The notes beneath the pieces are model-generated. The model was given only the letters and a program-made list of their open reading frames with translations, searched no databases and had not been told where the DNA came from. Both the position numbers and the translations under genes were made by a program. A DNA stretch of 64,000 bases from assembly GCF_055900595.2 (NCBI RefSeq), contig NZ_CM148325.1; one strand, given 5' to 3'. This document shows, piece after piece, positions 4,245 to 36,970 of the stretch (position 1 is its first letter; every line of letters starts with the position of its first letter).

Positions 4245-4799
4245 ATGTACGCACTTAAACCTATGGGGATACCAGGCAAAGCCCCGGCGCATGTGAAAGC
4301 CTGGACACAGCAGGAAGATGATTTGCTGATCACCCTGTACCCGCAGCACACAGCACGAGATATCGCCGGACGTCTGGGGCGCAGCTACGAAGGAGTTCGC
4401 GGCCGCATTTCTCGTCTGCGTGAACAGGGCAGGATTGGCATCAAGCAGCAAAGACTAAGCGATGAGATGATCGCCACGCTCATCAGGAACCGCCACACCA
4501 GGTCCCTCAAGGAACTGGCACACATGGCGAAAGTTTCGACACGCACGGTAACCAACCGATTGAGGGCGCTGGGCTACAGCCTGATCAAATGCGGAGAACT
4601 GCATAAAAACGCCGTCTACAGCGACTGCATCGTTGAGATTATCAACCAGTTACGCGACGAGCAGGGCCTGACGTTCAGGGAAATCGCGCAGCGCCTTAGC
4701 CACGAACTACAGCCGAACCCCACCCCGGCACTTGCTCGCCATCTCTACTGGCGCCGCACAGCAGCCGACGCCGTACTCCGCGAACTGTTACCAGATTGA
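4245..4799 (+). CDS. Putative DNA-binding protein with three HTH-like repeats (184 aa)
   Basis: It contains a Myb/SANT-like WTQQEDDLLITLY..ARDIAGRLGRSYEGVRGRISRL segment and two further HTH-like segments (SLKELAHMAKVSTRTVTNRLRAL and LTFREIAQRLSHEL). GGAGA SD. Confidence 0.55.
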   Translation: MYALKPMGIPGKAPAHVKAWTQQEDDLLITLYPQHTARDIAGRLGRSYEGVRGRISRLREQGRIGIKQQRLSDEMIATLIRNRHTRSLKELAHMAKVSTRTVTNRLRALGYSLIKCGELHKNAVYSDCIVEIINQLRDEQGLTFREIAQRLSHELQPNPTPALARHLYWRRTAADAVLRELLPD

Positions 4800-5782: not shown

Positions 5783-8272
5783 ATGGAGTTCGTCAGAGAC
5801 TGGCAAAAACCGCGCCCCGCTATCGGGCGCGAAGGCTTACCCGTACCTGAAACCGCACTGGATACCATCCTGAAGTGTTACCGCGCAGACGAAGAGCGCG
5901 CACTGCACGCTGAAGAGCAGGGTCATCCGCTTGCGGGCACAACCATCGGTAACGCGATCGACAAGTGGGAAGGCGCACAGGAGCGCCAGGAAGAGGCCAT
6001 CACGCTCACACAGGAAGCGAGAAGACACCCGCCCACCCTTATTGAGGAAACCCTCAAAGAGCTGGACACCCTGCCCAAGTGGTTGAGGCTGCCGCTGATT
6101 AAGCACCTGAACTTTTTAAGGCGCAAACAGGAGGACGAACAACAGAAAGGCAAGCGCGGCAAGGACACCCGCAAATATGAGCGCTTCCTGAAAAACGGCA
6201 TCCCCGCACGTCTTCGCCGTATTCGTGAGATTAACGCTCGCTTTGCACCGTTAAGTTTTCAGGCCGCTGCCATGCGCGAGAGTCTGGAAGAACTGATCAC
6301 ACTGCCGAACCTGAGCCGTGAACGCATCCAGAAAATAGCCGTACTGCTTGCCAGCGCCGTTAAAATGCATCTTGCCGACGCAATGGACAAGGCCCGCGAA
6401 ATAACAGGGAACGACAAAGACGACAACCTGAACAACTGGCTGATTGCCTACCAGTATATTGGTCGCCGTGTCCTGAAGCTGGGGATCACCCCACCATACT
6501 GGAGCGCCCTTGAACTCCGCCCCGACCGCAGAAGCCCCCCGGACGTGACACTGGTTCCGGGCGCTGTTTTGCGCCTGAACGACGCCGAATGGTGGAATAA
6601 AAAACTTCGCCAGATGCACGACGTCTGGCGTGAGGAACTTTTACGTGCAGCGGGCCTTGTATCCCGCCAGACCTCCGTTTATGTGAGCCGTGAAGCGCTG
6701 GCAGACTTCCGCGAAAAACAGGCCCGTACCCGCGATTTTCTCAAAGCGCACGACGTGGAGAACGAAGACGGCGAACGCATCAGTCTGGAAGATATCTACT
6801 ACGCCAGTACATCCAACCCGCATAACCGCCGCAACGAGATGATGGCGTGCGTTAAGGGAATGGAGCTTATCGCACAGGAACGCGGCGACGTGGCCTTCTT
6901 CGTCACGGTCACAGCCCCGTCTCGTTTTCACAGCGTCACCGACGCAGGCACGCTGAACCCGAAATACAAAGGCGCAACCGTAAAGGACGCCAGCGACTAT
7001 CTGGTTTATAACTTCTTCGCCTCCGCCCGCAAACTCATCAAAAAAGAGAAGCGGGGCTGGTACGGCATTCGCACCGTGGAGCCTCACCACGACGGCACGC
7101 CCCACTGGCACATGCTGGTATTCACAAGCCCTGAGAACGAAGAGCGCATCACGGAAATCATGTGCAATGCCGCCATTCGCGAAGACCGGGCAGAGCTGGG
7201 CGACGACATCACCCCGCGCTTCAAGTGCGAGAAGATAGATCCCGAAAAAGGCACGCCAACCAGCTACATCGCCACCTACATAGGCAAAGGCATTGACGCC
7301 GCTGCATTCGGCGACACGGATCCAAAAACAGGTAAACCGCCCGTTGACCACGAAAGCGGAAAACCTATGGCGGACACCGTGGAAAACGCCGTCGCCTGGG
7401 CGCGCCTGCATCGCATTCGCCAGTTCCAGTTCTTTGGCCTCCCTTCCCGTCAGGTGTGGCGTGAGTTCCGCCGCCTTGCCGGACAAATGGCACGCAACCC
7501 GAAGGGGCCGCAGGCACTGACCAACCCCAAAGCCGACGCCCTCCTTGTTGCAGCCGATACGGGGTGTTTTGCCAGCTACATCATGCATCAGGGCGGTGTG
7601 CTCATTCCCCGTAGTGAATATCTGGCCCGCACAGCCTACGTCACCGCAGAAGAGCCGAACAATTACAGCGAATTCCCCGAGCGCATTTACGGTATCCGCA
7701 TGCCGGAACTGGGGGAGGACTTCACGTTATGCACCCACCCGGAAGAGTGGAAAATCGTCAGAAAGGAACCGGAACCAGACAACCGCACGGGCGAGGGTTT
7801 TGACCTTCAGGGCGGCCCCGCCGCCCCTTGGACTCGTGGCAATAACTGTCACCCTGACGAAAAAACAACCAACAACAGCACACAAACAGAACAGTCAGAG
7901 TGGGCAAAACTGCCCCCCTTACCCCCATCGTCGGACGGTTTTGTGAGCTGGTTTAAGTCGCTTAAGAGGCCGGACAGGAAAAAACTACAAAGATTGCTCA
8001 AAAAACGCACCGAAGAGAGTCGCCAGAACGCCAGCGGCGGCACCGACACACCCACCGACACCATTAACCTGGGCGTTGTGCTGCCGGAACTGCCGGAAAT
8101 CGTGCAAGTCCGCCGCGATCTGGAAGCGCTGGGCGCGGACTTCCCCGAAGCAATGGCCCATTCCGTCTTTATGGGTGCCCGCGTTCGTCTGGGTGACGGT
8201 CGCACCGTTCACCGCGACGAGCAGACCGGGCGCATCACCGTCACCAGTCTGCAACCGGAGGCGAAACCATGA
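5783..8272 (+). CDS. A: Rolling-circle replication initiator endonuclease, P2 gpA family (829 aa)
   Basis: HUH-type metal motif EPHHDGTPHWHMLVF and tyrosine motif TSYIATYIGK. Same position and size class as P2 A. Confidence 0.9.
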   Translation: MEFVRDWQKPRPAIGREGLPVPETALDTILKCYRADEERALHAEEQGHPLAGTTIGNAIDKWEGAQERQEEAITLTQEARRHPPTLIEETLKELDTLPKWLRLPLIKHLNFLRRKQEDEQQKGKRGKDTRKYERFLKNGIPARLRRIREINARFAPLSFQAAAMRESLEELITLPNLSRERIQKIAVLLASAVKMHLADAMDKAREITGNDKDDNLNNWLIAYQYIGRRVLKLGITPPYWSALELRPDRRSPPDVTLVPGAVLRLNDAEWWNKKLRQMHDVWREELLRAAGLVSRQTSVYVSREALADFREKQARTRDFLKAHDVENEDGERISLEDIYYASTSNPHNRRNEMMACVKGMELIAQERGDVAFFVTVTAPSRFHSVTDAGTLNPKYKGATVKDASDYLVYNFFASARKLIKKEKRGWYGIRTVEPHHDGTPHWHMLVFTSPENEERITEIMCNAAIREDRAELGDDITPRFKCEKIDPEKGTPTSYIATYIGKGIDAAAFGDTDPKTGKPPVDHESGKPMADTVENAVAWARLHRIRQFQFFGLPSRQVWREFRRLAGQMARNPKGPQALTNPKADALLVAADTGCFASYIMHQGGVLIPRSEYLARTAYVTAEEPNNYSEFPERIYGIRMPELGEDFTLCTHPEEWKIVRKEPEPDNRTGEGFDLQGGPAAPWTRGNNCHPDEKTTNNSTQTEQSEWAKLPPLPPSSDGFVSWFKSLKRPDRKKLQRLLKKRTEESRQNASGGTDTPTDTINLGVVLPELPEIVQVRRDLEALGADFPEAMAHSVFMGARVRLGDGRTVHRDEQTGRITVTSLQPEAKP

Positions 8273-8679
8273 ACCGTTATCATTGTGTACTGCCGCGCCA
8301 CTACTTCGGTCAGATTATGCGCTCGCGTATTCCGGCGGTCACGCTGCGAAACCTGAGCACGGTACCGCAGCCGGGCGATGAGCTGGAAATCGCCGTAGCA
8401 GGCCCTGACCGTTCAGCCAGCTGCGTGACCGCCGACGTGCTGAACGCCGTGCCCGTAGGTGGTGACTGGCTGGTTGCCATCCGCTTCCGCCAAGACCCGT
8501 TCGCACCTGAACCGCTCACCCCCGCAGGCCGCATCATGCAGAACTGGCGGGATGAACGCGCGAAGGCGAACTGCGAAAAACTGATTAACAGGATTGCCAC
8601 GACAAACCGACATGCCGCGCTGGCGCGCCGGATATACCCCGCAAAATCAACACAACCAACAGGAGTAAAAGGCCCATGA
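8269..8679 (+). CDS. Hypothetical protein (136 aa), possibly with an ASCH/DUF3850-like PUA fold
   Basis: ATGA overlap with the A stop. The N-terminus HCVLPRHYFGQIMRSRIPAVTLRN....PGDELEI resembles the ASCH-type pattern. This is a weak, by-eye call. Confidence 0.45.
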   Translation: MNRYHCVLPRHYFGQIMRSRIPAVTLRNLSTVPQPGDELEIAVAGPDRSASCVTADVLNAVPVGGDWLVAIRFRQDPFAPEPLTPAGRIMQNWRDERAKANCEKLINRIATTNRHAALARRIYPAKSTQPTGVKGP

Positions 8680-8822
8680 AAAGAATCGCCGGAACTGACT
8701 ACCAGGAGCTGCTTAAAGCGGTGGAAAACTACCGTTCAGCGCTGGTGTGGTGTGAGATTAAGCCCTGTGACCCGGGAGCAGTTAAGGATTGCAACCGGCG
8801 CGTGAGGACATTCAGCGCGTAA
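8676..8822 (+). CDS. Small hypothetical protein (48 aa, MKRIAGTDYQELLKAVENYRSALVWCEIKPC...)
   Basis: ATGA overlap with the upstream ORF. Below the track cut-off. Confidence 0.35.
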   Translation: MKRIAGTDYQELLKAVENYRSALVWCEIKPCDPGAVKDCNRRVRTFSA

Positions 8823-8937
8823 TTGGCTACCGCTATGTAGCAGCCATTATTGACCTTGTGAATGAACTGGAGGAAGCAAAAGAGCGCATCGCAGAACTGG
8901 AAACCCAGAATAACCCCAACCAGCAGGAGCAGAAGCC

Positions 8938-9519
8938 ATGAAAAAAAGAGACCTTAAAAAACACCTCCGTAGTCAGATTGAATATTTTGAAGATAAGGCT
9001 GCAAAAACAGGGCTTTCCGGTAAAGAGAACATGAACTTCAGGGCACACCTCCTGACGTGGAGAATACTTAATATCACGAGAGATGGACTTGAGCCGCTAG
9101 CCTACCTGATGGAAGATGGCGAGACCCTCATACAGGATCCCAATGTGGAAATGGAGAAGAAAGAGATGGACCTGCCGATAATCGGGCTGTTTGAGATCCC
9201 TGAACTAATAGGACGTTATGAACACGAAAACCGCCAGCTTGCCGCCTTTTTATCCGTGACAATCGAACGACTGGAAACCGTGAAACACGATATTCCGTTC
9301 GGTTTTGATGAGCGCACCGAGGGTGATTTGCTCAGCTTTCAGATTGCCCTGAACGTGCTCACCGCAGAGCCTTCTGCGTGGCTACGCCCGGAACGGCACC
9401 ACAACACGTTCGCATTTACCGTAATTCCCTACGATGCCGCACAGGAAGAGGATAACTTCGAGACCAGGCTTGTTCCCCTGTATCAGATTGCGGATTTCTA
9501 TACGTTGATTCGCTGGTAA
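8938..9519 (+). CDS. Hypothetical cargo protein (193 aa), no recognisable domain
   Basis: AGGAG SD, visibly AT-rich codon usage compared with its neighbours, and a strong terminator after it. Confidence 0.55.
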   Translation: MKKRDLKKHLRSQIEYFEDKAAKTGLSGKENMNFRAHLLTWRILNITRDGLEPLAYLMEDGETLIQDPNVEMEKKEMDLPIIGLFEIPELIGRYEHENRQLAAFLSVTIERLETVKHDIPFGFDERTEGDLLSFQIALNVLTAEPSAWLRPERHHNTFAFTVIPYDAAQEEDNFETRLVPLYQIADFYTLIRW

Positions 9520-9534
9520 TCCCCCACAGTAAAA

Positions 9535-9557
9535 CAGCCCGACCGGGCTGTTTTTTT
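9535..9557 (+). terminator. Intrinsic terminator
   Basis: CAGCCC-GACC-GGGCTG followed by TTTTTTT. Confidence 0.7.
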
Positions 9558-9614
9558 ATCTGATATTTTTGATAACGTTGACCGGCTCATTAGCAAAAAA
9601 GCAAAGAGGAAAAC

Positions 9615-10001
9615 ATGAAAGCCCGTATCGGGATCATCCCGGAAAAAGCCCTGCGCCAGCACCTGATTGATATTGCCAGAGGGAAGCGAAAACCACAGCC
9701 CGACGAGCCAAAGGTATGGTTTTCATCCATCAATGCGGCAGGCCAGACGCTGAGCAATGAAAATATCGCCCTTCTGCGTCTTATGAATGAGGAGAAGCCG
9801 CAGACCATGACCGCACTTGCGGAGTTATCCGGCAGAAAACTGAGCAACCTGTCTGTAACCCTGAAAATGCTGAGCAGCTACGGTTTTGTCAGTCTGGAAA
9901 AGAAAGGGAATACTGTACACCCGAAAGCACTTTTTACCGATTTTGAAATCATCGTTGATCCGTCCGTGGGTTCAGTACATCGCGCCACCGCCCGGCCCTG
10001 A
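9615..10001 (+). CDS. Winged-HTH (MarR/ArsR-like) DNA-binding protein (128 aa)
   Basis: AAGAGG SD. The segment NIALLRLMNEEKPQTMTALAELSGRKLSNLSVTLKMLSSYGFVSLEKKGN is a typical wHTH. It is a single-gene unit between two terminators. Confidence 0.55.
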   Translation: MKARIGIIPEKALRQHLIDIARGKRKPQPDEPKVWFSSINAAGQTLSNENIALLRLMNEEKPQTMTALAELSGRKLSNLSVTLKMLSSYGFVSLEKKGNTVHPKALFTDFEIIVDPSVGSVHRATARP

Positions 10002-10013
10002 AGTGCGCAATAA

Positions 10014-10040
10014 ACAGCCCCGTTCGGGGCTGTTATTTAT
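10014..10040. terminator. Bidirectional hairpin terminator between convergent genes
   Basis: ACAGCCCC-GTTC-GGGGCTGT with T-rich flanks on both strands. Confidence 0.6.
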
Positions 10041-10411
10041 TCCAGAATCAGCTGTTCAGGTGTGCAGCCGTACAGTCTGGCAAGGCGCTCAATATTTGCC
10101 CTGCGCGGGCGTTCTGTTCTTTCGAATTCGGACACGGTAGCCTGCCTGATACCCAGCGCATCCGCCACCTGCTTTTGCGTCATTCCGCGATAGATTCGCC
10201 ACGCCGCCTGCATGGTGCAGCCACGTTCCGAGAGGATGTTGACCACCTCGTTGGGATACAGCGTATCAGGCGATGCACTCGGTTCGTTCTGGACGTCCTC
10301 GTAGAGTTCGTCAAGGTCGCTGTCTCCTGCCAGTTTTTCAAACAACGCCACTGGCAGAATGACGGATACCCTGTTACCCGCACCGTCAGTAATAAACTGA
10401 ATCTGACTCAT
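10037..10411 (-). CDS. Antitoxin: N-terminal Phd/YefM-like segment plus C-terminal Xre-type HTH (124 aa)
   Basis: The C-terminal MTQKQVADALGIRQATVSEFERTERPRRANIERLARLYG is an Xre HTH. It lies downstream of a RelE/ParE toxin gene (HigBA-like order). AGGAGGGG SD. Confidence 0.75.
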   Translation of the reverse strand: MSQIQFITDGAGNRVSVILPVALFEKLAGDSDLDELYEDVQNEPSASPDTLYPNEVVNILSERGCTMQAAWRIYRGMTQKQVADALGIRQATVSEFERTERPRRANIERLARLYGCTPEQLILE

Positions 10412-10451
10412 TTGCCCCTCCTGCTAAACATCGGTTTATTTTTTAATTTGC

Positions 10452-10484
10452 TGCCGGTGATAAAAAACGGCGGGTCGCCCCGCC
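10452..10484 (-). terminator. Strong intrinsic terminator between the toxin and antitoxin genes
   Basis: On the minus strand, directly after the toxin stop: GGCGGG-GCGA-CCCGCC followed by GTTTTTT. Confidence 0.6.
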
Positions 10485-10751
10485 TTAGTATGTTGTCGAG
10501 GTTCTCCGCTGAATACGGAGGATCCTGATAACCACTATCTGCCCTCCCTCAATCGTGAACCTGACACGGTAATGATTTACCCTGAGTCTGTACTCCCCGC
10601 CCGAGTCAGTGAGCTTTTTAATATCCAGATTCTGGAACTTCGGATAGCCATAAAGCGCGTTAACTTTCTCGCGTAAGGATTTCTGATCCCTCGCTGGCAA
10701 AACCCGTAAATCTTTGATTGCCCGAGGGGTCCACATGATTTCAGTCGTCAT
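10485..10751 (-). CDS. RelE/ParE-family toxin (88 aa from the ATG at 10751; the track start at 10757 is GTG)
   Basis: The sequence ..WTPRAIKDLRVLPARDQKSLREKVNAL...YRLRVNHYRVRFTIEGGQIVVIRILRIQRR has the typical RelE/ParE fold signature (YR.RVG.YR..F...). Confidence 0.8.
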   Translation of the reverse strand: MTTEIMWTPRAIKDLRVLPARDQKSLREKVNALYGYPKFQNLDIKKLTDSGGEYRLRVNHYRVRFTIEGGQIVVIRILRIQRRTSTTY

Positions 10752-10802
10752 AAACACACCGGAAGCAAATTATTAAAGAGCCGTGCCCGCTGGCACACCT
10801 TA

Positions 10803-10846
10803 AATATAGGTTTTAACCCCTATATTGTCAAACAAAATCCCTATAT
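10803..10846 (-). promoter_or_regulatory. Sigma70 promoter of the TA unit, overlapped by a palindromic operator
   Basis: On the minus strand, TTGACA (10831-10826), a 17-nt spacer and TATATT (10808-10803). The inverted repeat AATATAGG (10803-10810) / CCTATATT (10819-10826) and a third half-site CCTATAT (10840-10846) overlap the promoter. Confidence 0.55.
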
Positions 10847-10859
10847 CATGAAGTAAAAA

Positions 10860-11140
10860 AGCACCTCCCGCGACCTCCCTTTCCGGTGCACGAAAGTGCA
10901 CAAATTTGCACAATTTTTTTGAACGACTTTTTGCCCTTCCGGCCCGTGTGGCGTCTGGATCCGTCGGGGATCCGTGCGTGCACGAAAAAAGGCCTTTTTC
11001 TGCGCGCAGGTGACGGGGGAACAGCCCGCGTTTCAGGGGGTAAATAGCATTCCCTGAACGATGTTGCAGTGACACAACAGAATGGCTGTATTTCTCACGC
11101 TGAGCGTGAAAAAGACGTAAGGGCTTTTGATTTGATGGGG
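10860..11140. other. Probable cos / packaging-recognition region (non-coding, repeat-rich)
   Basis: It sits in the non-coding gap of about 580 bp between the TA unit and orf167, in the region where P2 has cos. It holds four GTGCAC/TGCAC motifs (10886, 10896, 10907, 10978), two of them as GTGCACGAAA. It also has the palindrome CTGCGCGCAG (11000-11009) and the G-rich 19-mer GGTGACGGGGGAACAGCCC (11009-11027), which matches about 12/19 of the remembered P2 cos end GGCGAGGCGGGGAAAGCAC. An alternative GGCGA-starting 19-mer lies at 11886-11904. Confidence 0.3.
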
Positions 11141-11340
11141 TGAAAGATAAGGCCGTCAAAATCGCACTGAGGCAGCGAGAATATGTCGTCAGAGTTGCGG
11201 GGTTGCGTAAGCATCCGCCCGGCGATGATGGCTACAGGGCTGGAGATGTTGTGAAATTATCTGAAGGAATAACCAGCTTGCAGGAGAACCCGGGCAAAGT
11301 CAGAATAGCGGCAGGCATCAACTCAAAAGAGGATAATGTC

Positions 11341-11844
11341 ATGAGCCACTTTAATGATTTATGCCAGATCAATCGTGAAGCTGAAGAAAAACGCGCTGAG
11401 GCAGCTCAAATTTTGCGGGATGAAGCGGCAAGGCTGATTGATTTCTATGAAGAATGGCTGGGGCTTCCATCCATGTACTGGGAAGACGATGATGGCGACC
11501 TGCACCGCTACGTGGAGACAGGCTTGCCATGTAAGACAGCGGCGGATTTTAGTCCTCTTTCAGTCCACAATATCGCATCTGCACCAGACAATATTTTCCG
11601 CATGGCCGTACGAACCTGGGTTAAGTCATCTGACAGCAGCTACCCGGTAAGCGTGGTTATTGCACTTGAATTATATTCAGTAGATGCGGAACGGGTGTCT
11701 CTGAGAGTCCGGGTGGAAGACGATATTTCTGTTCGCGTATTTATCAATAAACCCAGCGAAGAAGCCTGGGGCGATGTTGTTATGCACATGAAAAAGCACA
11801 TCGCTAATCACCTGAAAAAGCGAGCGCCATCAGCACTTCGTTAA
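11341..11844 (+). CDS. Hypothetical cargo protein (167 aa); the GTG-extended 234-aa track ORF was rejected
   Basis: AAGAGGA SD 6 nt before the ATG at 11341. No domain recognised. An 11-bp hairpin lies downstream (11859-11884). Confidence 0.5.
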   Translation: MSHFNDLCQINREAEEKRAEAAQILRDEAARLIDFYEEWLGLPSMYWEDDDGDLHRYVETGLPCKTAADFSPLSVHNIASAPDNIFRMAVRTWVKSSDSSYPVSVVIALELYSVDAERVSLRVRVEDDISVRVFINKPSEEAWGDVVMHMKKHIANHLKKRAPSALR

Positions 11845-11910
11845 GCAGAGCTGGAGAGTCGGGGCATAAATTTTTTATGCCCCGGCGAAGCAGCAGACAA
11901 GCGAAGCGCG

Positions 11911-12966
11911 TCAGGATATGGGCCGGGTGTCTAACAGTGCGTAAGGGTTAAAACGGATCACCTCTTCGCCCAGCCAGTCGTTGACGTGTTTCATTGCTTC
12001 CATGACGGGCATCAGTTCGTTAATGGCAAACACACGGGCTGCCTTCTCCACATCCCCGAATGACCCCTTCTCACCCGGCATGGCCCCCATCAGCTGAGGT
12101 GGCACGCGGTGCACAGCCAGCACGTCATCACGCGATGCGGCCTTGACGTTCATGAACTCATCCTTTGCGGTGATTTGCTGAAACGGCAAAATCTGTACGC
12201 CATCCTTACCACCTCCCGCCGCGTGGATGAGCAGATTTTTAAACGCCCCGCCACCACGCGCGCTTTGCAGTGTTTCCCGCAGTTTTTCCATGCTTTCACG
12301 GTCAACCTGCGCCGCACCGATGTAGACAATACAGCCCGCGTGTGAGCCGTTATCGTAGTAGAGCTTGCGGAAGATATCGGCGGAATGTGACAGGCTGGCA
12401 GACAGCAGGCCGCCCAGGTAATCCGGCATCCCGTAAATCTCCTGGTTGATATCAGGATTCATCAGGTGGCATATCGTCCCCTCACGAAAGCGGTACTCTT
12501 CCTGTCCTTCCTGTATATACCACCATGATTTCATATCGCTGCCACGTCGCATGTATTTCGCCAGCGCCCGGCGCAGGGCCAGCGGTTCGCCAAGCATGTT
12601 GCGCCGCAGCTCAAGACAGGCATTACCGAACACAAACCAGTCCATCGCCACCCCGGCGAACTCCTGGCGGGACAGCAGAGGATGTGGAATATAGCAGCCC
12701 AGCAGCACATTACGTTTGAAGCTGAGCGCCGACTGGTGCCAGGACGTCTGGCGGGCAGCCCGTGCCAGTCCGTACCAGTCAACGGGCGTTTCAAACCACC
12801 GCCCGTTGTCGGCGCAGTACATGCTGTCCAGCAGGTCGGCCCCTGACAGCCGGTAAGGTCCTTCAAACGTGAAGGCACTCAGTGTCGGGTCGCTTCGCAG
12901 GGAATCCGCAAGGCTGCCCTGCGCTGCGCGGGCGTTCGTACGTCGTTGTTTATTTTTTCTGCTCAT
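11911..12966 (-). CDS. Q: Portal protein, P2 gpQ-like
   Basis: Collinear by eye with remembered P2 Q (..FGNA.LE.....PDINQE.YG.P.YL......LFRRKYY.NG.HAG.I.Y...). Adjacent to terminase P. Confidence 0.9.
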   Translation of the reverse strand: MSRKNKQRRTNARAAQGSLADSLRSDPTLSAFTFEGPYRLSGADLLDSMYCADNGRWFETPVDWYGLARAARQTSWHQSALSFKRNVLLGCYIPHPLLSRQEFAGVAMDWFVFGNACLELRRNMLGEPLALRRALAKYMRRGSDMKSWWYIQEGQEEYRFREGTICHLMNPDINQEIYGMPDYLGGLLSASLSHSADIFRKLYYDNGSHAGCIVYIGAAQVDRESMEKLRETLQSARGGGAFKNLLIHAAGGGKDGVQILPFQQITAKDEFMNVKAASRDDVLAVHRVPPQLMGAMPGEKGSFGDVEKAARVFAINELMPVMEAMKHVNDWLGEEVIRFNPYALLDTRPIS

Positions 12967-14717
12967 CAGAACTCCGTAACACTGAAGGGGGCGGCATCAT
13001 GTTCACCGCCGACAGGTTCGTTGATAACGGCCAGCATGGTGGCCCATGCAAGATCGCCATGGCTTACGCCTCTTGCGCGATCTGTTTCGTAGGTGATAAA
13101 TCCGGCCTGCGTTTTTGTTTTGCGTACCGCGTTAAAGGCGCTCACCAGTTCGCGCTCGCTGCGGTCGTACTCCCACCGCCCGGCGCGCATGAGCTGCAGC
13201 ATCTTCAGAACCAGCGTGCGCTTTGATGACAGGGTGAAGGTGTAGGGAATGGCTGCCGGAAAAAAGCGCTTCACAATCTGATACACCGCATCCCCGTGAC
13301 CGCCGGTTACGTCAATACCGATATGCTCAACGTTATAGCGAAAGGTGAACTCTTCAATCACCTTCGCCTGCGCCTCAAACTCCAGCCCCTGCACCCGCCG
13401 CGTCTCCACGGTGCGAAAACGCCCGCCCGGTACGGCTGGCGGCACCACCACGACAACCGCCCCGCTGTCACCGTTCCCGCTACTGCCGTTGGCGTCGTAC
13501 CCAATCCACACAGGGCGGTTCCCCATCGGACGCGGTGCAAACGGCTTCCAGTCCGGCCACTCGTCGTATCCGTCAACACCGCAGCCAATCAGGATATTCA
13601 GGTTAAATGCCGATTCCCCTTCGCGAGCAAATTCACACATGTAGAGATTGCGGAACTCGTCTTCAGTGTTATTGCGCCGGATTTTGTCAATGTTGGTTAA
13701 CGTCCATCCCTGACTGACCACATCTTCCAGCGTCACAATTTGCCGCCAGATATAGTCAGGACAGATAAGGCCGTTATGAAGCGCATTCCAGCTCACATCA
13801 AAATGCTGACGTTTATGAGTACGAAGCCCTTCATTCCAGTGATCGCCGTTCCAGTATGCATACGCCTCATGTGTTTCACTTGATGGCGTGGAAAAATAGG
13901 TACACCGCAAACCATCCAGCGTTGCCATAGCAGCAGCCACCTTGCGCAGCTCTGCGAAACGCCCCGTCCAGAAAAACTCATCAAAATACAGATTCCCTGT
14001 GTACGCTTGCGCGGTGGCCGCAGAAGTGCCGAGAAAATGCAGCTCTGCACCGTTGGAGAGGATGACTTTATCGCCCCCTTTCAGTTCCACATCAACTTCA
14101 GATGCAGCCTTCTGAATAATGCTTTTAAACTGGAGCGCCTGACGACGAGACGCAGACAAAAAAATCTGGTTACGCTGGTAAGGTTGTGCCACATCGTCAC
14201 GCAGCGCCATCAGCAGCGCTTCCTGCGCAAAATACCAGGTCGCCCCAATCTGGCGGGATTTCAGGATCATCCTGTCAGTAATTCCGGCACGCTCACAGGC
14301 ACCGATAGCATCAAGCCATTTGCGCTGGTGTCCGGCCAGCCTGTCGGTAATTTTTTCCCGCAGCGCCGCGATCTGTTCCGGCGTGAAATGATTTTTGTGT
14401 TTTTTCGCCCGGCCTTTCTTTCCTGTTGCCGTCTCATCCGGCAGACCGTCATGCAGCTTTTTAAGCTGACGGGTCAGCAAATCAATTTCCTTAAAGTCCC
14501 CGCCTGTTTTATTCTGTTTTTCCGTGAGCTGAATGAGTCGCGCATCCATGGACTGCGTGACACGCTGAACCGGGGGCGTCTCATCCCACTGGTCGCGTTT
14601 TTTCCACGAATGGATCGTGTTCTGGTTGATACCCATAAGGCGGGAAATTTCCGCAACAGGGTAACCCTGCCAGTACAGCTGGCGTGCCCGCTGGCGAACA
14701 AATGTATCCTGAATCAT
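12966..14717 (-). CDS. P: Terminase large (ATPase) subunit, P2 gpP-like
   Basis: The N-terminus RARQLYWQGYPVAEISRLMGINQNTIHSWKKRDQWDE matches the remembered P2 P. Size and position also fit. Confidence 0.9.
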   Translation of the reverse strand: MIQDTFVRQRARQLYWQGYPVAEISRLMGINQNTIHSWKKRDQWDETPPVQRVTQSMDARLIQLTEKQNKTGGDFKEIDLLTRQLKKLHDGLPDETATGKKGRAKKHKNHFTPEQIAALREKITDRLAGHQRKWLDAIGACERAGITDRMILKSRQIGATWYFAQEALLMALRDDVAQPYQRNQIFLSASRRQALQFKSIIQKAASEVDVELKGGDKVILSNGAELHFLGTSAATAQAYTGNLYFDEFFWTGRFAELRKVAAAMATLDGLRCTYFSTPSSETHEAYAYWNGDHWNEGLRTHKRQHFDVSWNALHNGLICPDYIWRQIVTLEDVVSQGWTLTNIDKIRRNNTEDEFRNLYMCEFAREGESAFNLNILIGCGVDGYDEWPDWKPFAPRPMGNRPVWIGYDANGSSGNGDSGAVVVVVPPAVPGGRFRTVETRRVQGLEFEAQAKVIEEFTFRYNVEHIGIDVTGGHGDAVYQIVKRFFPAAIPYTFTLSSKRTLVLKMLQLMRAGRWEYDRSERELVSAFNAVRKTKTQAGFITYETDRARGVSHGDLAWATMLAVINEPVGGEHDAAPFSVTEF

Positions 14718-31583: not shown

Positions 31584-32675
31584 ATGACCGACCTGTTAAT
31601 CAACGTTCCGTCACCGGATATCGAAATCACCATCAACAACAACAGACTCCGTAACGTCACGGAGCGGCTCATGACGCTGTCACTGACCGACAACCGGGGC
31701 TTTGAGGCGGACCGCGTCACCCTGACCATTGACGACGCGGACGGGCAGCTTCAGCTGGCACAGCGCGGCGCACGCCTGAACGTGATGATTGGCTGGCGCG
31801 GGGAGGCGCTGGTTAACAAGGGTGTCTACATCGTTGATGAAGTGACGTGGGAAGGCCCGCCGGACAAACTGACCATCACCGCCAGCAGCGCCGATTTTCG
31901 CGAAGAGTTCAACGTGAAGCGTGAAGTCTCCTGGCACGACGTGACGGTAAAACAGGTTGTGTCAGCCATCGCGCACCGCTACGGCCTGAAAGCACAGATA
32001 AGCGATATCCTCATGGATATCGAAATTGACCACGCAGACCAGACCGAAGAGAGCGATATATCCTTCCTGACCCGCATGGCTGAAATGCTGGGTGCGATTG
32101 CCACCGTAAAAAACGGCAGCCTGTTATTCATTCTGCCGGGTGGCGGAACCGGGCCGGACGGAAGAGCCCTGCCTTCGTTCGCCATTACCCGCAGCAGCGG
32201 CGACAGTCACCGCTTTCGCATTGCTGACCGTGATGCGTATACGGGGGTCCGGGCGCACTGGCTCGATCTGAAGTTCGGGCAAAAGAAAAAAGTGAACGTG
32301 AAGCGACGCAGGGAAGCCGGGAAACAGAAACAGGAGAAGAGCAGCAGCCGGGAAGGTGATTACATGGAGGGCGCGGAAGGGAACGTCTACGTTCTGCGCA
32401 GGACTTACCAGAATGAAGAAACCGCACGACGTGCAGCAGCTGCAAAGTGGCAGGAACTACAGCGGGGCGCGGCATCATTCTCCATCACGCTGGCGCGCGG
32501 TCGTGCCGACCTGTACCCTGAAATGCACGGCAGGGTAACAGGTTTTAAAAGCGAGGTGGACAATCAGGACTGGATTATTGCCAGGGTGGAGCACAGCATA
32601 GATGAAAGCGGCTTCACCACACAACTGGAGCTGGAAGCGAAAATCCCCGAATGGATAGCAGATTCAGGCGGATAA
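31584..32675 (+). CDS. D: Late tail/baseplate hub protein, P2 gpD-like
   Basis: ..MTLSLTDNRGFEADRVTLTIDDADGQ, SWHD, GDYMEG, KW..LQRG.A.FSI.LA.GRADLY match remembered P2 D. Confidence 0.9.
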   Translation: MTDLLINVPSPDIEITINNNRLRNVTERLMTLSLTDNRGFEADRVTLTIDDADGQLQLAQRGARLNVMIGWRGEALVNKGVYIVDEVTWEGPPDKLTITASSADFREEFNVKREVSWHDVTVKQVVSAIAHRYGLKAQISDILMDIEIDHADQTEESDISFLTRMAEMLGAIATVKNGSLLFILPGGGTGPDGRALPSFAITRSSGDSHRFRIADRDAYTGVRAHWLDLKFGQKKKVNVKRRREAGKQKQEKSSSREGDYMEGAEGNVYVLRRTYQNEETARRAAAAKWQELQRGAASFSITLARGRADLYPEMHGRVTGFKSEVDNQDWIIARVEHSIDESGFTTQLELEAKIPEWIADSGG

Positions 32676-34465: not shown

Positions 34466-36970
34466 ATGTCACAAACTATCGACCTGACCCTGGACGGCCT
34501 GTCCTGCGGTCACTGCGTTAAACGCGTGAAAGAAAGTCTCGAACAGCGCCCGGATGTTGAGCAGGCGGATGTGTCTATCACTGAAGCGCACGTTACCGGT
34601 ACTGCCAGTGCAGAACAGCTGATCGAAACCATCAAACAAGCGGGTTATGACGCATCTGTAAGCCACCCAAAGGCTAAACCGCTGGCGGAGTCATCAATCC
34701 CGTCGGAAGCACTGACAGCGGTTTCTGAGGCGCTTCCGGCAGCAAACGCCGATGACGATGACAGTCAGCAGTTGCTGCTGAGCGGCATGAGCTGCGCCAG
34801 CTGTGTTACCCGCGTACAAAATGCGCTGCAAAGCGTACCGGGCGTCACTCAGGCACGGGTAAACCTGGCGGAGCGTACTGCGCTGGTGATGGGCAGTGCC
34901 TCCCCACAAGATTTAGTGCAGGCAGTGGAAAAAGCGGGCTACGGCGCGGAAGCGATTGAAGATGACGCTAAACGCCGCGAGCGCCAGCAGGAAACCGCCG
35001 TCGCTACCATGAAGCGCTTCCGCTGGCAGGCAATTGTCGCTCTGGCGGTAGGTATCCCGGTGATGGTCTGGGGGATGATCGGCGATAACATGATGGTCAC
35101 CGCCGACAACCGCAGTCTGTGGTTAGTTATCGGCCTGATAACGCTGGCGGTAATGGTTTTCGCCGGCGGGCATTTTTACCGTAGCGCATGGAAAAGCCTG
35201 CTGAACGGTGCGGCGACAATGGATACGCTGGTGGCGCTGGGTACTGGCGTGGCGTGGCTCTATTCAATGAGCGTCAACCTGTGGCCGCAGTGGTTCCCGA
35301 TGGAAGCGCGACATCTTTATTACGAAGCCAGTGCGATGATTATCGGTCTGATTAATCTCGGTCATATGCTGGAAGCGCGCGCACGTCAGCGTTCTTCAAA
35401 GGCGCTGGAGAAATTACTCGATTTAACCCCGCCGACGGCGCGCCTGGTCACTGACGAAGGTGAAAAAAGCGTGCCGCTGGCAGATGTTCAGCCTGGTATG
35501 TTACTACGCCTGACGACCGGCGATCGCGTACCGGTAGATGGTGAAATTACCCAGGGCGAAGCGTGGCTGGATGAAGCAATGCTGACGGGCGAACCTATTC
35601 CGCAGCAAAAAGGCGAAGGCGATAGCGTTCATGCAGGTACCGTGGTGCAGGACGGTAGCGTGCTGTTTCGTGCCAGTGCGGTTGGCAGCCATACTACGCT
35701 GTCACGGATCATTCGTATGGTGCGCCAGGCCCAGAGCAGTAAACCGGAAATCGGCCAGTTGGCGGATAAAATCTCTGCCGTATTTGTGCCGGTAGTGGTG
35801 GTGATTGCGCTGGTCAGTGCGGCAATCTGGTACTTCTTTGGTCCGGCACCGCAAATTGTTTATACCCTGGTGATTGCCACTACGGTACTGATTATCGCCT
35901 GCCCGTGTGCGCTGGGGCTGGCAACGCCAATGTCGATTATTTCCGGCGTCGGGCGTGCGGCTGAATTTGGCGTGCTGGTGCGGGACGCCGACGCGCTGCA
36001 GCGCGCCAGTACGCTCGACACCGTAGTGTTCGATAAAACCGGGACGCTGACCGAAGGGAAGCCGCAGGTTGTCGCAGTAAAAACATTTGCTGATGTTGAT
36101 GAAGCGCAAGCATTGCGTCTGGCGGCGGCACTGGAACAAGGTTCCAGCCATCCGCTGGCACGGGCGATCCTCGATAAAGCAGGCGATATGCAGCTGCCGC
36201 AGGTCAACAGCTTCCGTACATTGCGTGGGCTGGGCGTGAGCGGTGAAGCAGAAGGTCATGCGTTATTGCTGGGTAATCAGGCGTTGTTAAATGACCAGCA
36301 AGTCGATACTAAAGCGATTGAAGCAGATATTTCAGCCCAGGCATCGCAAGGGGCAACGCCTGTGCTGCTGGCGGTTGACGGGAAAGCGGTGGCCTTGCTG
36401 GCGGTGCGCGATCCGTTGCGTAACGATAGTGTGGCGGCACTGCAACGTCTGCATAAAGCGGGATATCGTCTGGTGATGCTAACCGGGGATAACCCGACCA
36501 CCGCCAATGCGATCGCCAAAGAAGCAGGGATTGATGAGGTGATAGCCGGCGTGCTGCCAGACGGTAAAGCCGAAGCGATCAAACGTCTGCAAAGTGAAGG
36601 ACGTCAGGTGGCAATGGTGGGCGACGGCATTAACGACGCGCCAGCGCTGGCTCAGGCGGATGTCGGTATTGCTATGGGTGGCGGCAGCGATGTTGCCATT
36701 GAAACCGCGGCGATTACCCTGATGCGCCATAGCCTGATGGGTGTTGCGGATGCGCTCGCAATTTCCCGCGCAACGCTGCGCAACATGAAGCAGAACCTGC
36801 TCGGTGCGTTTATCTACAACAGCATTGGTATTCCGGTCGCCGCCGGTATTTTGTGGCCGTTCACGGGAACACTGCTTAACCCGGTGGTTGCCGGAGCGGC
36901 AATGGCGCTCTCGTCGATTACCGTAGTGAGTAACGCCAACCGGTTGCTGCGGTTTAAACCGAAGGAATAA
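34466..36970 (+). CDS. copA: Cu(I)-exporting P-type ATPase
   Basis: 834 aa, with two N-terminal GLSCGHC/GMSCASC metal-binding domains, CPC, DKTGT and GDGINDAP motifs. Recognised as E. coli CopA. Confidence 0.97.
34666..34672 (+). other. copA -1 programmed frameshift site giving CopA(Z)
   Basis: Slippery C CCA AAG at codons 67-69. The -1 frame reads GGC TAA, giving the published 70-aa metallochaperone product. Confidence 0.7.

Follow-up and report, generated by a model that had tools for sequence, protein, structure and literature searches.

The interval between the replication endonuclease gene gpA and the portal gene gpQ, the tin/old locus of P2, is an already published variable hotspot of P2-like phages. 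In Escherichia coli P2-like prophages, this cos-proximal region was defined as a hotspot in which genes occur in 1,650 arrangements (Rousset et al. 2022, PMC9122126), and it was confirmed as the main P2 defence hotspot in a later study, in which phage protection was seen for 6 of the 8 unknown-gene loci taken from the analogous P4 hotspot, and an antiviral role was predicted for 15-32% of unknown P2 proteins (NAR 2026, PMC13586616). Here we report an analysis of this interval (positions 8269-11844) in a 64,000-nt stretch of contig NZ_CM148325.1 (assembly GCF_055900595.2), hereafter called the window, whose numbering is used throughout. The window carries a P88-like, P2-family E. coli prophage, and the interval is its cos-flanking accessory region. 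With a probability of about 70%, we read the interval as a recombination mosaic in three layers, and not as one system, in which a rare gene cassette has replaced most of a toxin gene and left its presumed antitoxin gene, encoding a winged helix-turn-helix (wHTH) protein, without a partner.

Three other described groups are relevant to the genes of this interval. TumE-TumA is a translation-targeting toxin-antitoxin (TA) superfamily, validated in 2023 with pairs from other species, in which the partner gene usually precedes the DUF6516 gene (Durairaj et al. 2023, PMC10584680). The HigBA/MqsRA-type modules are toxin-first, with a toxin of the RelE/ParE superfamily (PF05016) and an antitoxin carrying a C-terminal HTH_3 domain. 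Finally, the protein family phrog_660 is widespread among phages.

The studied interval resembles the P2 hotspot (PMC9122126, PMC13586616) in its position, its variable content and a GC content below that of its flanks; it differs in lacking a recognisable defence system, its cargo consisting of TA modules and small accessory genes, and in having, relative to both P2 and P88, an extra gene slot (orf167) between cos and the portal gene. In sibling prophages, a PF20126 (TumE) gene and a wHTH gene of the HVO_A0114 family overlap by 4 nt, in toxin-first order, unlike the usual downstream position of DUF6516 (PMC10584680), whereas in the window the toxin is cut to 21 codons and the antitoxin-type gene alone survives. 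A second, intact module shares the gene order and domains of the HigBA/MqsRA type, and the N-terminal extension of its antitoxin could bind the toxin; it has no close relative among Protein Data Bank (PDB) sequences (best RelE3, E 4e-4), and it adds an intergenic GNRA hairpin with a T run and a 21-nt inverted repeat around the toxin open reading frame (ORF). Relative to phrog_660, the orf193 protein is extended by an N-terminal half of ~95 residues.

The proteins of the region were scanned against Pfam, NCBIfam, PHROGs and PADLOC-DB v2, and sigma-70-like promoters were predicted by consensus matching only. Compared loci are denoted by L followed by a number.

Results

Content and distribution of the gpA-portal interval

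All ORFs of the preliminary description were recovered at their positions, and its view of the interval as an established variable hotspot agrees with both anchor genes, with the two published surveys and with the content of relatives. The anchors, gpA (PF05840) and gpQ (PF04860), were identified by Pfam scan, and the large terminase gene follows on the minus strand at 12966-14717 (Table 1). The nearest phage relatives are P88-like (Xuanwuvirus, Peduoviridae). Hotspot content differs among L002, L033, L034, P88 and L003-L007: for instance, the L033 interval holds an orf136-like gene and four small genes of phrog_660 type, that of L034 holds ParM/ParR and a three-gene minus-strand operon, and that of phage P88 holds ParM/ParR and two small genes. 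The unusual composition noted earlier was also found, with a GC content of 0.47-0.53 over approximately 8600-11800 against 0.55-0.62 in the flanks.

Table 1. Features of the gpA-portal interval and its anchor genes in the window
Feature	Position	Strand	Basis
gpA replication endonuclease, 829 aa, left anchor of the hotspot	5783..8272	+	PF05840, 341.7 bits
orf136, 136 aa, conserved gene coupled to gpA	8269..8679	+	phrog_14984, E 4e-41
orf88 pseudogene: orf48 of the preliminary description (8676-8822) and an overlapping 50-aa frame (8789-8941)	8676..8941	+	alignment to relatives
Replacement cassette, 857 nt: orf88 body, orf193, terminator	8696..9552	+	breakpoints against sibling prophage L002
orf193, 193 aa	8938..9519	+	C-terminal half distantly phrog_660-like
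Intrinsic terminator of the A-orf136-orf88-orf193 transcript	9531..9561	+	10-bp stem, then T7 run
tumE relic, last 21 codons, in frame to the ATGA overlap with the wHTH gene	9553..9618	+	translation compared with L002
wHTH gene, HVO_A0114 family, 128 aa, intact	9615..10001	+	PF25212, 60 bits, cut-off 27.6
Bidirectional terminator between wHTH and HTH antitoxin genes	10013..10034	.	9-bp stem, 6 G-C pairs
Antitoxin, 124 aa: about 60 N-terminal residues, then C-terminal Xre-type HTH	10037..10411	-	PF01381 (HTH_3), 42.8 bits
GC hairpin with GNRA loop (GGCGGG-GCGA-CCCGCC), then T run	10469..10484	-	directly after toxin stop
RelE/ParE-superfamily toxin, 88 aa from ATG at 10751	10485..10751	-	PF05016, 37.4 bits, cut-off 23
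TA operon promoter, TTGACA-17 nt-TATATT, with three ATATAGG half-sites (putative operators)	10803..10846	-	11/12 matches
Conserved non-coding block, presumed cos region	10887..11264	.	88% identical to P88, 99% to L033
583-nt insertion relative to P88, carrying orf167 (coding sequence 11341-11844)	11265..11847	+	comparison with P88
Bidirectional terminator, orf167/portal	11849..11916	.	-32.6 kcal/mol, z -4.75; 88-94% identical in L003, L004
Portal gene, right anchor of the hotspot	11911..12966	-	PF04860, 66 bits

Of 5,426 complete E. coli genomes, 3 have the orf88-orf193 cassette, 9 each the wHTH gene, the RelE-HTH pair and orf136, and 30 orf167; some part of the query 8000-12100 was matched in more than 1,000 E. 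coli genomes. The strains with this type of prophage come mostly from poultry.

The preliminary description had divided the interval into four independent, uncharacterised transcription units, each with promoter or terminator signals of its own. This division did not hold, as two of the units are TA-derived and one of these is the decayed remnant of a TumE-type module, a type described in 2023. As for the signals, a strong promoter was predicted for the RelE-HTH pair only, with none upstream of the wHTH gene or orf167.

A replacement cassette and the remnant of a toxin gene

The comparison of relatives that the preliminary description had proposed did define cassette boundaries. Homology to the sibling prophage L002 stops at 8695/8696 and restarts at 9552/9553, and between these breakpoints 857 nt of the window stand in place of 429 nt of L002. 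The displaced segment of L002 comprises the first 309 nt of tumE and, ahead of the gene, direct repeats and promoter-like sites. The translation of what is left of this gene in the window, LSDIFDNVDRLISKKAKRKT, aligns with LLSDFFDNVDRLINEVTKGKA at the end of TumE in L002, and the window has this C-terminal relic alone and no full PF20126 toxin gene. In 6 of the 9 complete genomes with the wHTH gene, the gene overlaps by 4 nt the stop codon of a full 124-aa gene of the TumE family (sibling tumE, WP_029490435), which has precomputed PF20126 matches and the RefSeq name TumE/DUF6516. The earlier view of the wHTH gene as an orphan is thus correct in that it stands without a toxin, but the gene is not an independent unit; it was presumably orphaned by deletion, as the surviving partner (the presumed TumA antitoxin) of a TumE-family toxin.

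Both states coexist in E. coli GF60 (NZ_CP172185.1; L035 and L038), in which two sibling prophages lie at 3.19 and 4.36 Mb, one with tumE-wHTH and the other with orf88-orf193 and an orphan wHTH gene. The wHTH gene exists as two alleles (WP_032353653 and WP_029400441) with 93% nucleotide identity, whose differences are clustered in residues 12-67 and whose ratio of nonsynonymous to synonymous substitution rates (dN/dS) is 0.23, which points to divergence under purifying selection. In strain Br_112 (Br_112_kylling, L036), the window-type relic is joined to the L002-type wHTH allele with a crossover at the start of the wHTH gene, and this combination marks the prophage as a recombinant of both types.

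In the simplest reading, the cassette exchange deleted the toxin gene and stranded its antitoxin. The proposed mosaic would comprise a first layer of lytic-operon genes, the conserved orf136 followed by the rare orf88-orf193 cassette; a second layer derived from an ancestor with two back-to-back modules, one being tumE-wHTH and the other pairing a RelE-family toxin with an HTH antitoxin; and a third layer formed by orf167, whose insertion between cos and gpQ is typical of the lineage. The orf88-orf193 cassette would then have taken the place of the tumE promoter and of the first 309 nt of tumE, leaving the 21-codon relic and an antitoxin-type gene that looks promoterless. Since removal of the toxin would be harmless to the cell, the antitoxin gene could persist as a decaying or weakly expressed orphan.

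Since orf193 directly precedes the wHTH gene, in the place of tumE, one might suppose that it encodes a new toxin, alone or together with orf88, and that the TumA-type antitoxin has become its partner. Such a toxin swap, of the kind known from promiscuous antitoxin domains, seems highly improbable: a terminator with a 10-bp stem and the tumE relic lie between the two genes, orf193 is coupled to the lytic gpA operon, its homologues in the other P2-like prophages L003-L007 have no wHTH neighbour, and its family has no profile similarity to TumE. The related idea that orf193 is itself a diverged TumE was rejected on the same profile comparison (hhalign probability 0.1%).

A different alternative to decay is that the orphan has been kept as useful, either neutralising the TumE of sibling or incoming elements (anti-addiction) or regulating other genes. 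The sibling pair of GF60, in which a tumE-positive prophage resides alongside an orphan-bearing one, and the recombination documented in Br_112 would fit this explanation, and so would the two alleles with their low dN/dS and the integrity of the wHTH gene in every orf193-type copy read (the window, three complete genomes and L103). However, the dN/dS mostly reflects divergence older than the toxin loss, and the event is perhaps too recent for decay to be visible. Moreover, the gene lies behind a strong terminator with no predicted promoter, and the tumE-upstream repeat of L002 (TATGATTTRTTCA) occurs elsewhere in the 64-kb window no more often than expected by chance. On balance, we regard a retained function as unlikely.

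Several observations nevertheless weigh against the mosaic as we reconstruct it. The integrity of the wHTH gene in all orf193-type copies is what a gene kept for function, rather than a decaying one, could show, and the 66 nt of kept tumE could contain a weak internal promoter for it. Our own hmmscan of the sibling 124-aa protein (L002 2317-2691) against local Pfam-A and NCBIfam returned no family even at E 10, so that its identity as TumE rests on the precomputed Pfam matches and RefSeq names, and the validated TumA proteins may be of another type than HVO_A0114. For the second module, RelE-type rather than ParE-type activity of the toxin is tentative, with a score below cut-off for TIGR02385 (22.6 against 27.9 bits) and a weak match to E. 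coli RelE (E 0.86), in which R-x-R and a later R align with the K-x-K and R of RelE (K52, K54 and R61). No counterpart of the P2 19-nt cos sequence was found within 3 mismatches, and cos itself was not located. Finally, all genes of the locus are known here from their sequences only.

The conflict between local and precomputed annotation of the sibling TumE calls for caution wherever a missing match serves as evidence.

The locus is a clean natural example of turnover in the P2-family hotspot, with a toxin gene removed and its antitoxin spared. With ancestral and derived prophages coexisting in GF60 and a recombinant in Br_112, it offers a small system for testing whether an orphan antitoxin gives protection from related elements and for learning what the recurrent phrog_660-type and orf167-type accessory genes of P2-like phages do. 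By itself, it is mostly ordinary and reveals no new kind of system.

Genes coupled to gpA

The genes A, orf136, orf88 and orf193 are linked by ATGA stop/start overlaps, beginning with that between the gpA stop and the orf136 start, and no terminator was predicted on the plus strand from gpA up to 9531. The coupling of an orf136-orf48-orf193 unit to A, as originally described, is borne out by these overlaps, with the correction that orf48 is not a gene of its own but the 5' part of the frameshifted orf88. The frameshift results from a 1-nt deletion in a G run, with GG at 8797-8798 in place of GGG in relatives. In the three complete genomes with the cassette, 23CRST011, GF60 and Br_112 (loci L001, L035 and L036), orf88 is intact, with a 267-nt coding sequence for 88 aa that overlaps the orf136 stop and the orf193 start, and its product matches phrog_16519 (1.8e-9). 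Since the L103 assembly, 99.8% identical across the finding, shares the same deletion, the frameshift is probably a real allele.

The first of the coupled genes, orf136, is a backbone gene and not cargo. Its homologues (41-87% identity) come immediately behind gpA in the divergent P2-like prophages L003, L004-L007, L033 and L086-L088, and the motifs PQPGDELEI and PEPLTPAG are invariant among them. The outcome named earlier as speaking against a defence function, that all ORFs of the interval would prove to be conserved P2-family genes, is therefore seen in part, for orf136. Neither orf136 nor any other member of its family matched a Pfam family.

In contrast to orf136, the cassette is rare. 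Among 5.8 billion proteins, orf193 is represented by two clusters at 90% identity, and a search of 1.84 billion representative proteins gave 4 matches, full-length or partial. The genes for its full-length relatives (53% and 36% identity) follow a gpA/orf136-like pair and precede ogr and the portal gene. The C-terminal half (residues ~95-191) bears the motif DIPFGFDE..IAL..LTA.P.AW..PLYQ and may be distantly related to the family phrog_660: the profile match of orf193 itself is weak (E 0.0046), those of its relatives P0002, P0004 and P0005 reach 4e-4, 2e-5 and 2e-6, and a 104-aa relative in L033 is a strong phrog_660 member (1.7e-27). Pairwise comparison with a 143-aa protein of L039 gave E 3e-12. 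This C-terminal domain was found in 47 IMG/VR contigs, about half of them P2-like, with the gene some 1.8 kb downstream of gpA, and the remainder from other phages. A single-sequence AlphaFold2 (AF2) model of orf193 was unusable (predicted local distance difference test score, pLDDT, 38), and an internal duplication was rejected, as BLASTP of its two halves gave no alignment. Profile searches of PDB sequences with the orf136, orf193 and orf167 families found none below E 0.1, and tblastn against 50,697 phage records gave one weak match for orf193 and zero for orf136 and orf167.

In L003 (6590-6777), an orf193 homologue is followed by an 87-nt relic consisting of a terminator and the 3' end of the HTH antitoxin gene (90% identical to window 10012-10097), and then by a terminator matching window 11850-11914. 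Judged by this order, the L003 locus may have arisen by deletion from an arrangement like that of the window.

In P2, the A operon is an early lytic operon that is silenced in lysogens by the immunity repressor. Given this background and their coupling to A, we infer that orf136, orf88 and orf193 are lytic-phase accessories, and not defences expressed in the lysogen. They would be read on the gpA transcript, which would end at the 9531 terminator, and their products would be made during lytic growth, as accessories of replication, host takeover or counter-defence.

Alternatively, orf88-orf193, or orf167 on the other side of cos, may represent an undescribed anti-phage defence or anti-defence gene. 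The location in a validated defence hotspot is consistent with this idea, as are the protection rate at the P4 hotspot and the antiviral predictions for unknown P2 proteins (PMC13586616), the rarity and recent exchange of the orf88-orf193 cassette, and, for orf167, its position in a separate unit and a confident structural model without a match in PDB or BFVD. However, orf88 has become a pseudogene in the window, so that orf193 is no longer translationally coupled to it, and both genes are on the lytic gpA transcript with no promoter of their own predicted. Genes of phrog_660 type after gpA, and of orf167 type beside the portal gene, occur in many relatives, as expected for phage accessory biology rather than swappable cargo, and neither protein shows an enzymatic or sensor signature.

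The database scans also speak against a defence gene. No large known defence gene had been recognised in the preliminary description, and the Pfam, NCBIfam, PHROGs and PADLOC scans likewise found no ATPase, nuclease, reverse transcriptase or methylase domain in the interval. The PADLOC run, which had been suggested as a way to reveal a defence system, gave none; its matches were generic wHTH/HTH ones alone (CasR, RmrA and capH; E 1e-4 to 1e-6), with zero for orf136, orf48/50, orf193, the RelE toxin and orf167. We therefore consider a defence or anti-defence gene here improbable. If the claim is widened to an undescribed defence or counter-defence factor in either orf167 or the A-coupled orf88-orf193, together with an orphan TumA-type gene acting as immunity against sibling TumE, it is doubtful, and what keeps such a role alive as a minority prospect is the literature prior.

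An intact RelE/ParE-superfamily module

The toxin-first RelE/ParE TA pair of the preliminary description was confirmed by Pfam matches above the cut-offs. The toxin matches the RelE-like family phrog_1213 (1e-14), finds its best PDB sequence match in RelE3 of M. jannaschii and ends in RRTSTTY. The antitoxin belongs with phrog_7241 (1e-29), and its N-terminus is weakly RelB-like (E 0.011). The antitoxin gene lies 73 nt downstream of the toxin gene on the same strand, and the one predicted promoter is upstream of the toxin. The ATATAGG half-sites, read from the sequence, are at 10846-39 and 10825-18 and, inverted, at 10810-04. The pair is intact, has a strong predicted promoter, and is probably autoregulated. 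By analogy with its family, it would be a module with a ribosome-dependent mRNA interferase, serving to stabilise the prophage and possibly to abort infections.

The 9 copies in complete genomes are all 99-100% identical, and the pair was found in 2,690 blocks of the assembly collection. A pair with about 40% identity adjoins the portal gene in Brenneria prophages. In the Brenneria homologue (L013 ~11932-11947), a hairpin with the same 6-bp stem and a GTAA loop comes right after the toxin stop, although protein identity is no more than ~40%; the retention of stem and GNRA loop points to a functional RNA element in the region between the two genes.

A 21-nt inverted repeat (10439-10459 and 10757-10777, 18 of 21 positions complementary) exactly brackets the toxin ORF. 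In the predicted fold of the read-through transcript (minimum free energy -131 kcal/mol, z -3.4), its 5' arm, which includes the GGUG ribosome-binding site of the toxin, is paired with the other arm, which lies immediately before the antitoxin. Such pairing could adjust how much toxin is made relative to antitoxin. Between E. coli copies, the sequence does not vary.

The sibling arrangement of this locus, with tumE, WP_029400441 + WP_029400439 + WP_029400438 with its neighbours, is included in a published survey of the hotspot, where it is labelled "hypothetical + HTH_3 + ParE_toxin" and catalogued without characterisation (Rousset et al. 2022, supplementary file 6, PMC9122126).

The non-coding block, orf167 and the portal-side terminator

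The cos-like region of the preliminary description corresponds to a conserved non-coding block, at which the homology of L034 to the window also restarts and which is presumed to be the cos region. Beyond this block lies orf167, a clear member of phrog_5091 (3.5e-52). Its relatives always adjoin the portal gene, and they appear to be fixed residents of the cos-portal slot in P88-like phages. The structural model of orf167 is confident and shows a small alpha/beta protein, for which fold searches of PDB and BFVD gave no close match. The protein is more likely a binding protein than an enzyme.

An Rfam search over 8000-12200 returned nothing apart from one gyrA-RNA match on a terminator, below threshold. 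The 68-nt portal-side terminator (hairpin CGGGGCATAAA/TTTATGCCCCG) recurs in L003 and L004, where it is placed between the orf193 homologue and ogr; the portal proteins of these two loci are only ~30% identical to that of the window despite the conserved terminator. This element may be a shared module junction used in recombination.

Other features of the prophage

Upstream of gpA, positions 4245-4799 encode a 184-aa protein with several overlapping winged-helix/HTH matches, including a sub-threshold one to HVO_A0114 (22 bits); the prophage probably uses it as a DNA-binding protein of its early region. On the other side, the tail/baseplate hub gene gpD lies at 31584-32675 and a gene for a CopA-type P-type ATPase at 34466-36970, which places the right end of the prophage near 33-34 kb and makes the remainder of the window chromosomal. 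In related prophages, gpA is annotated as split or frameshifted in GF60 (L035 1-773) and as truncated, with 567 aa called, in Br_112 (L099 6141-7844); judging by these annotations, some prophages of this type may be replication-defective.

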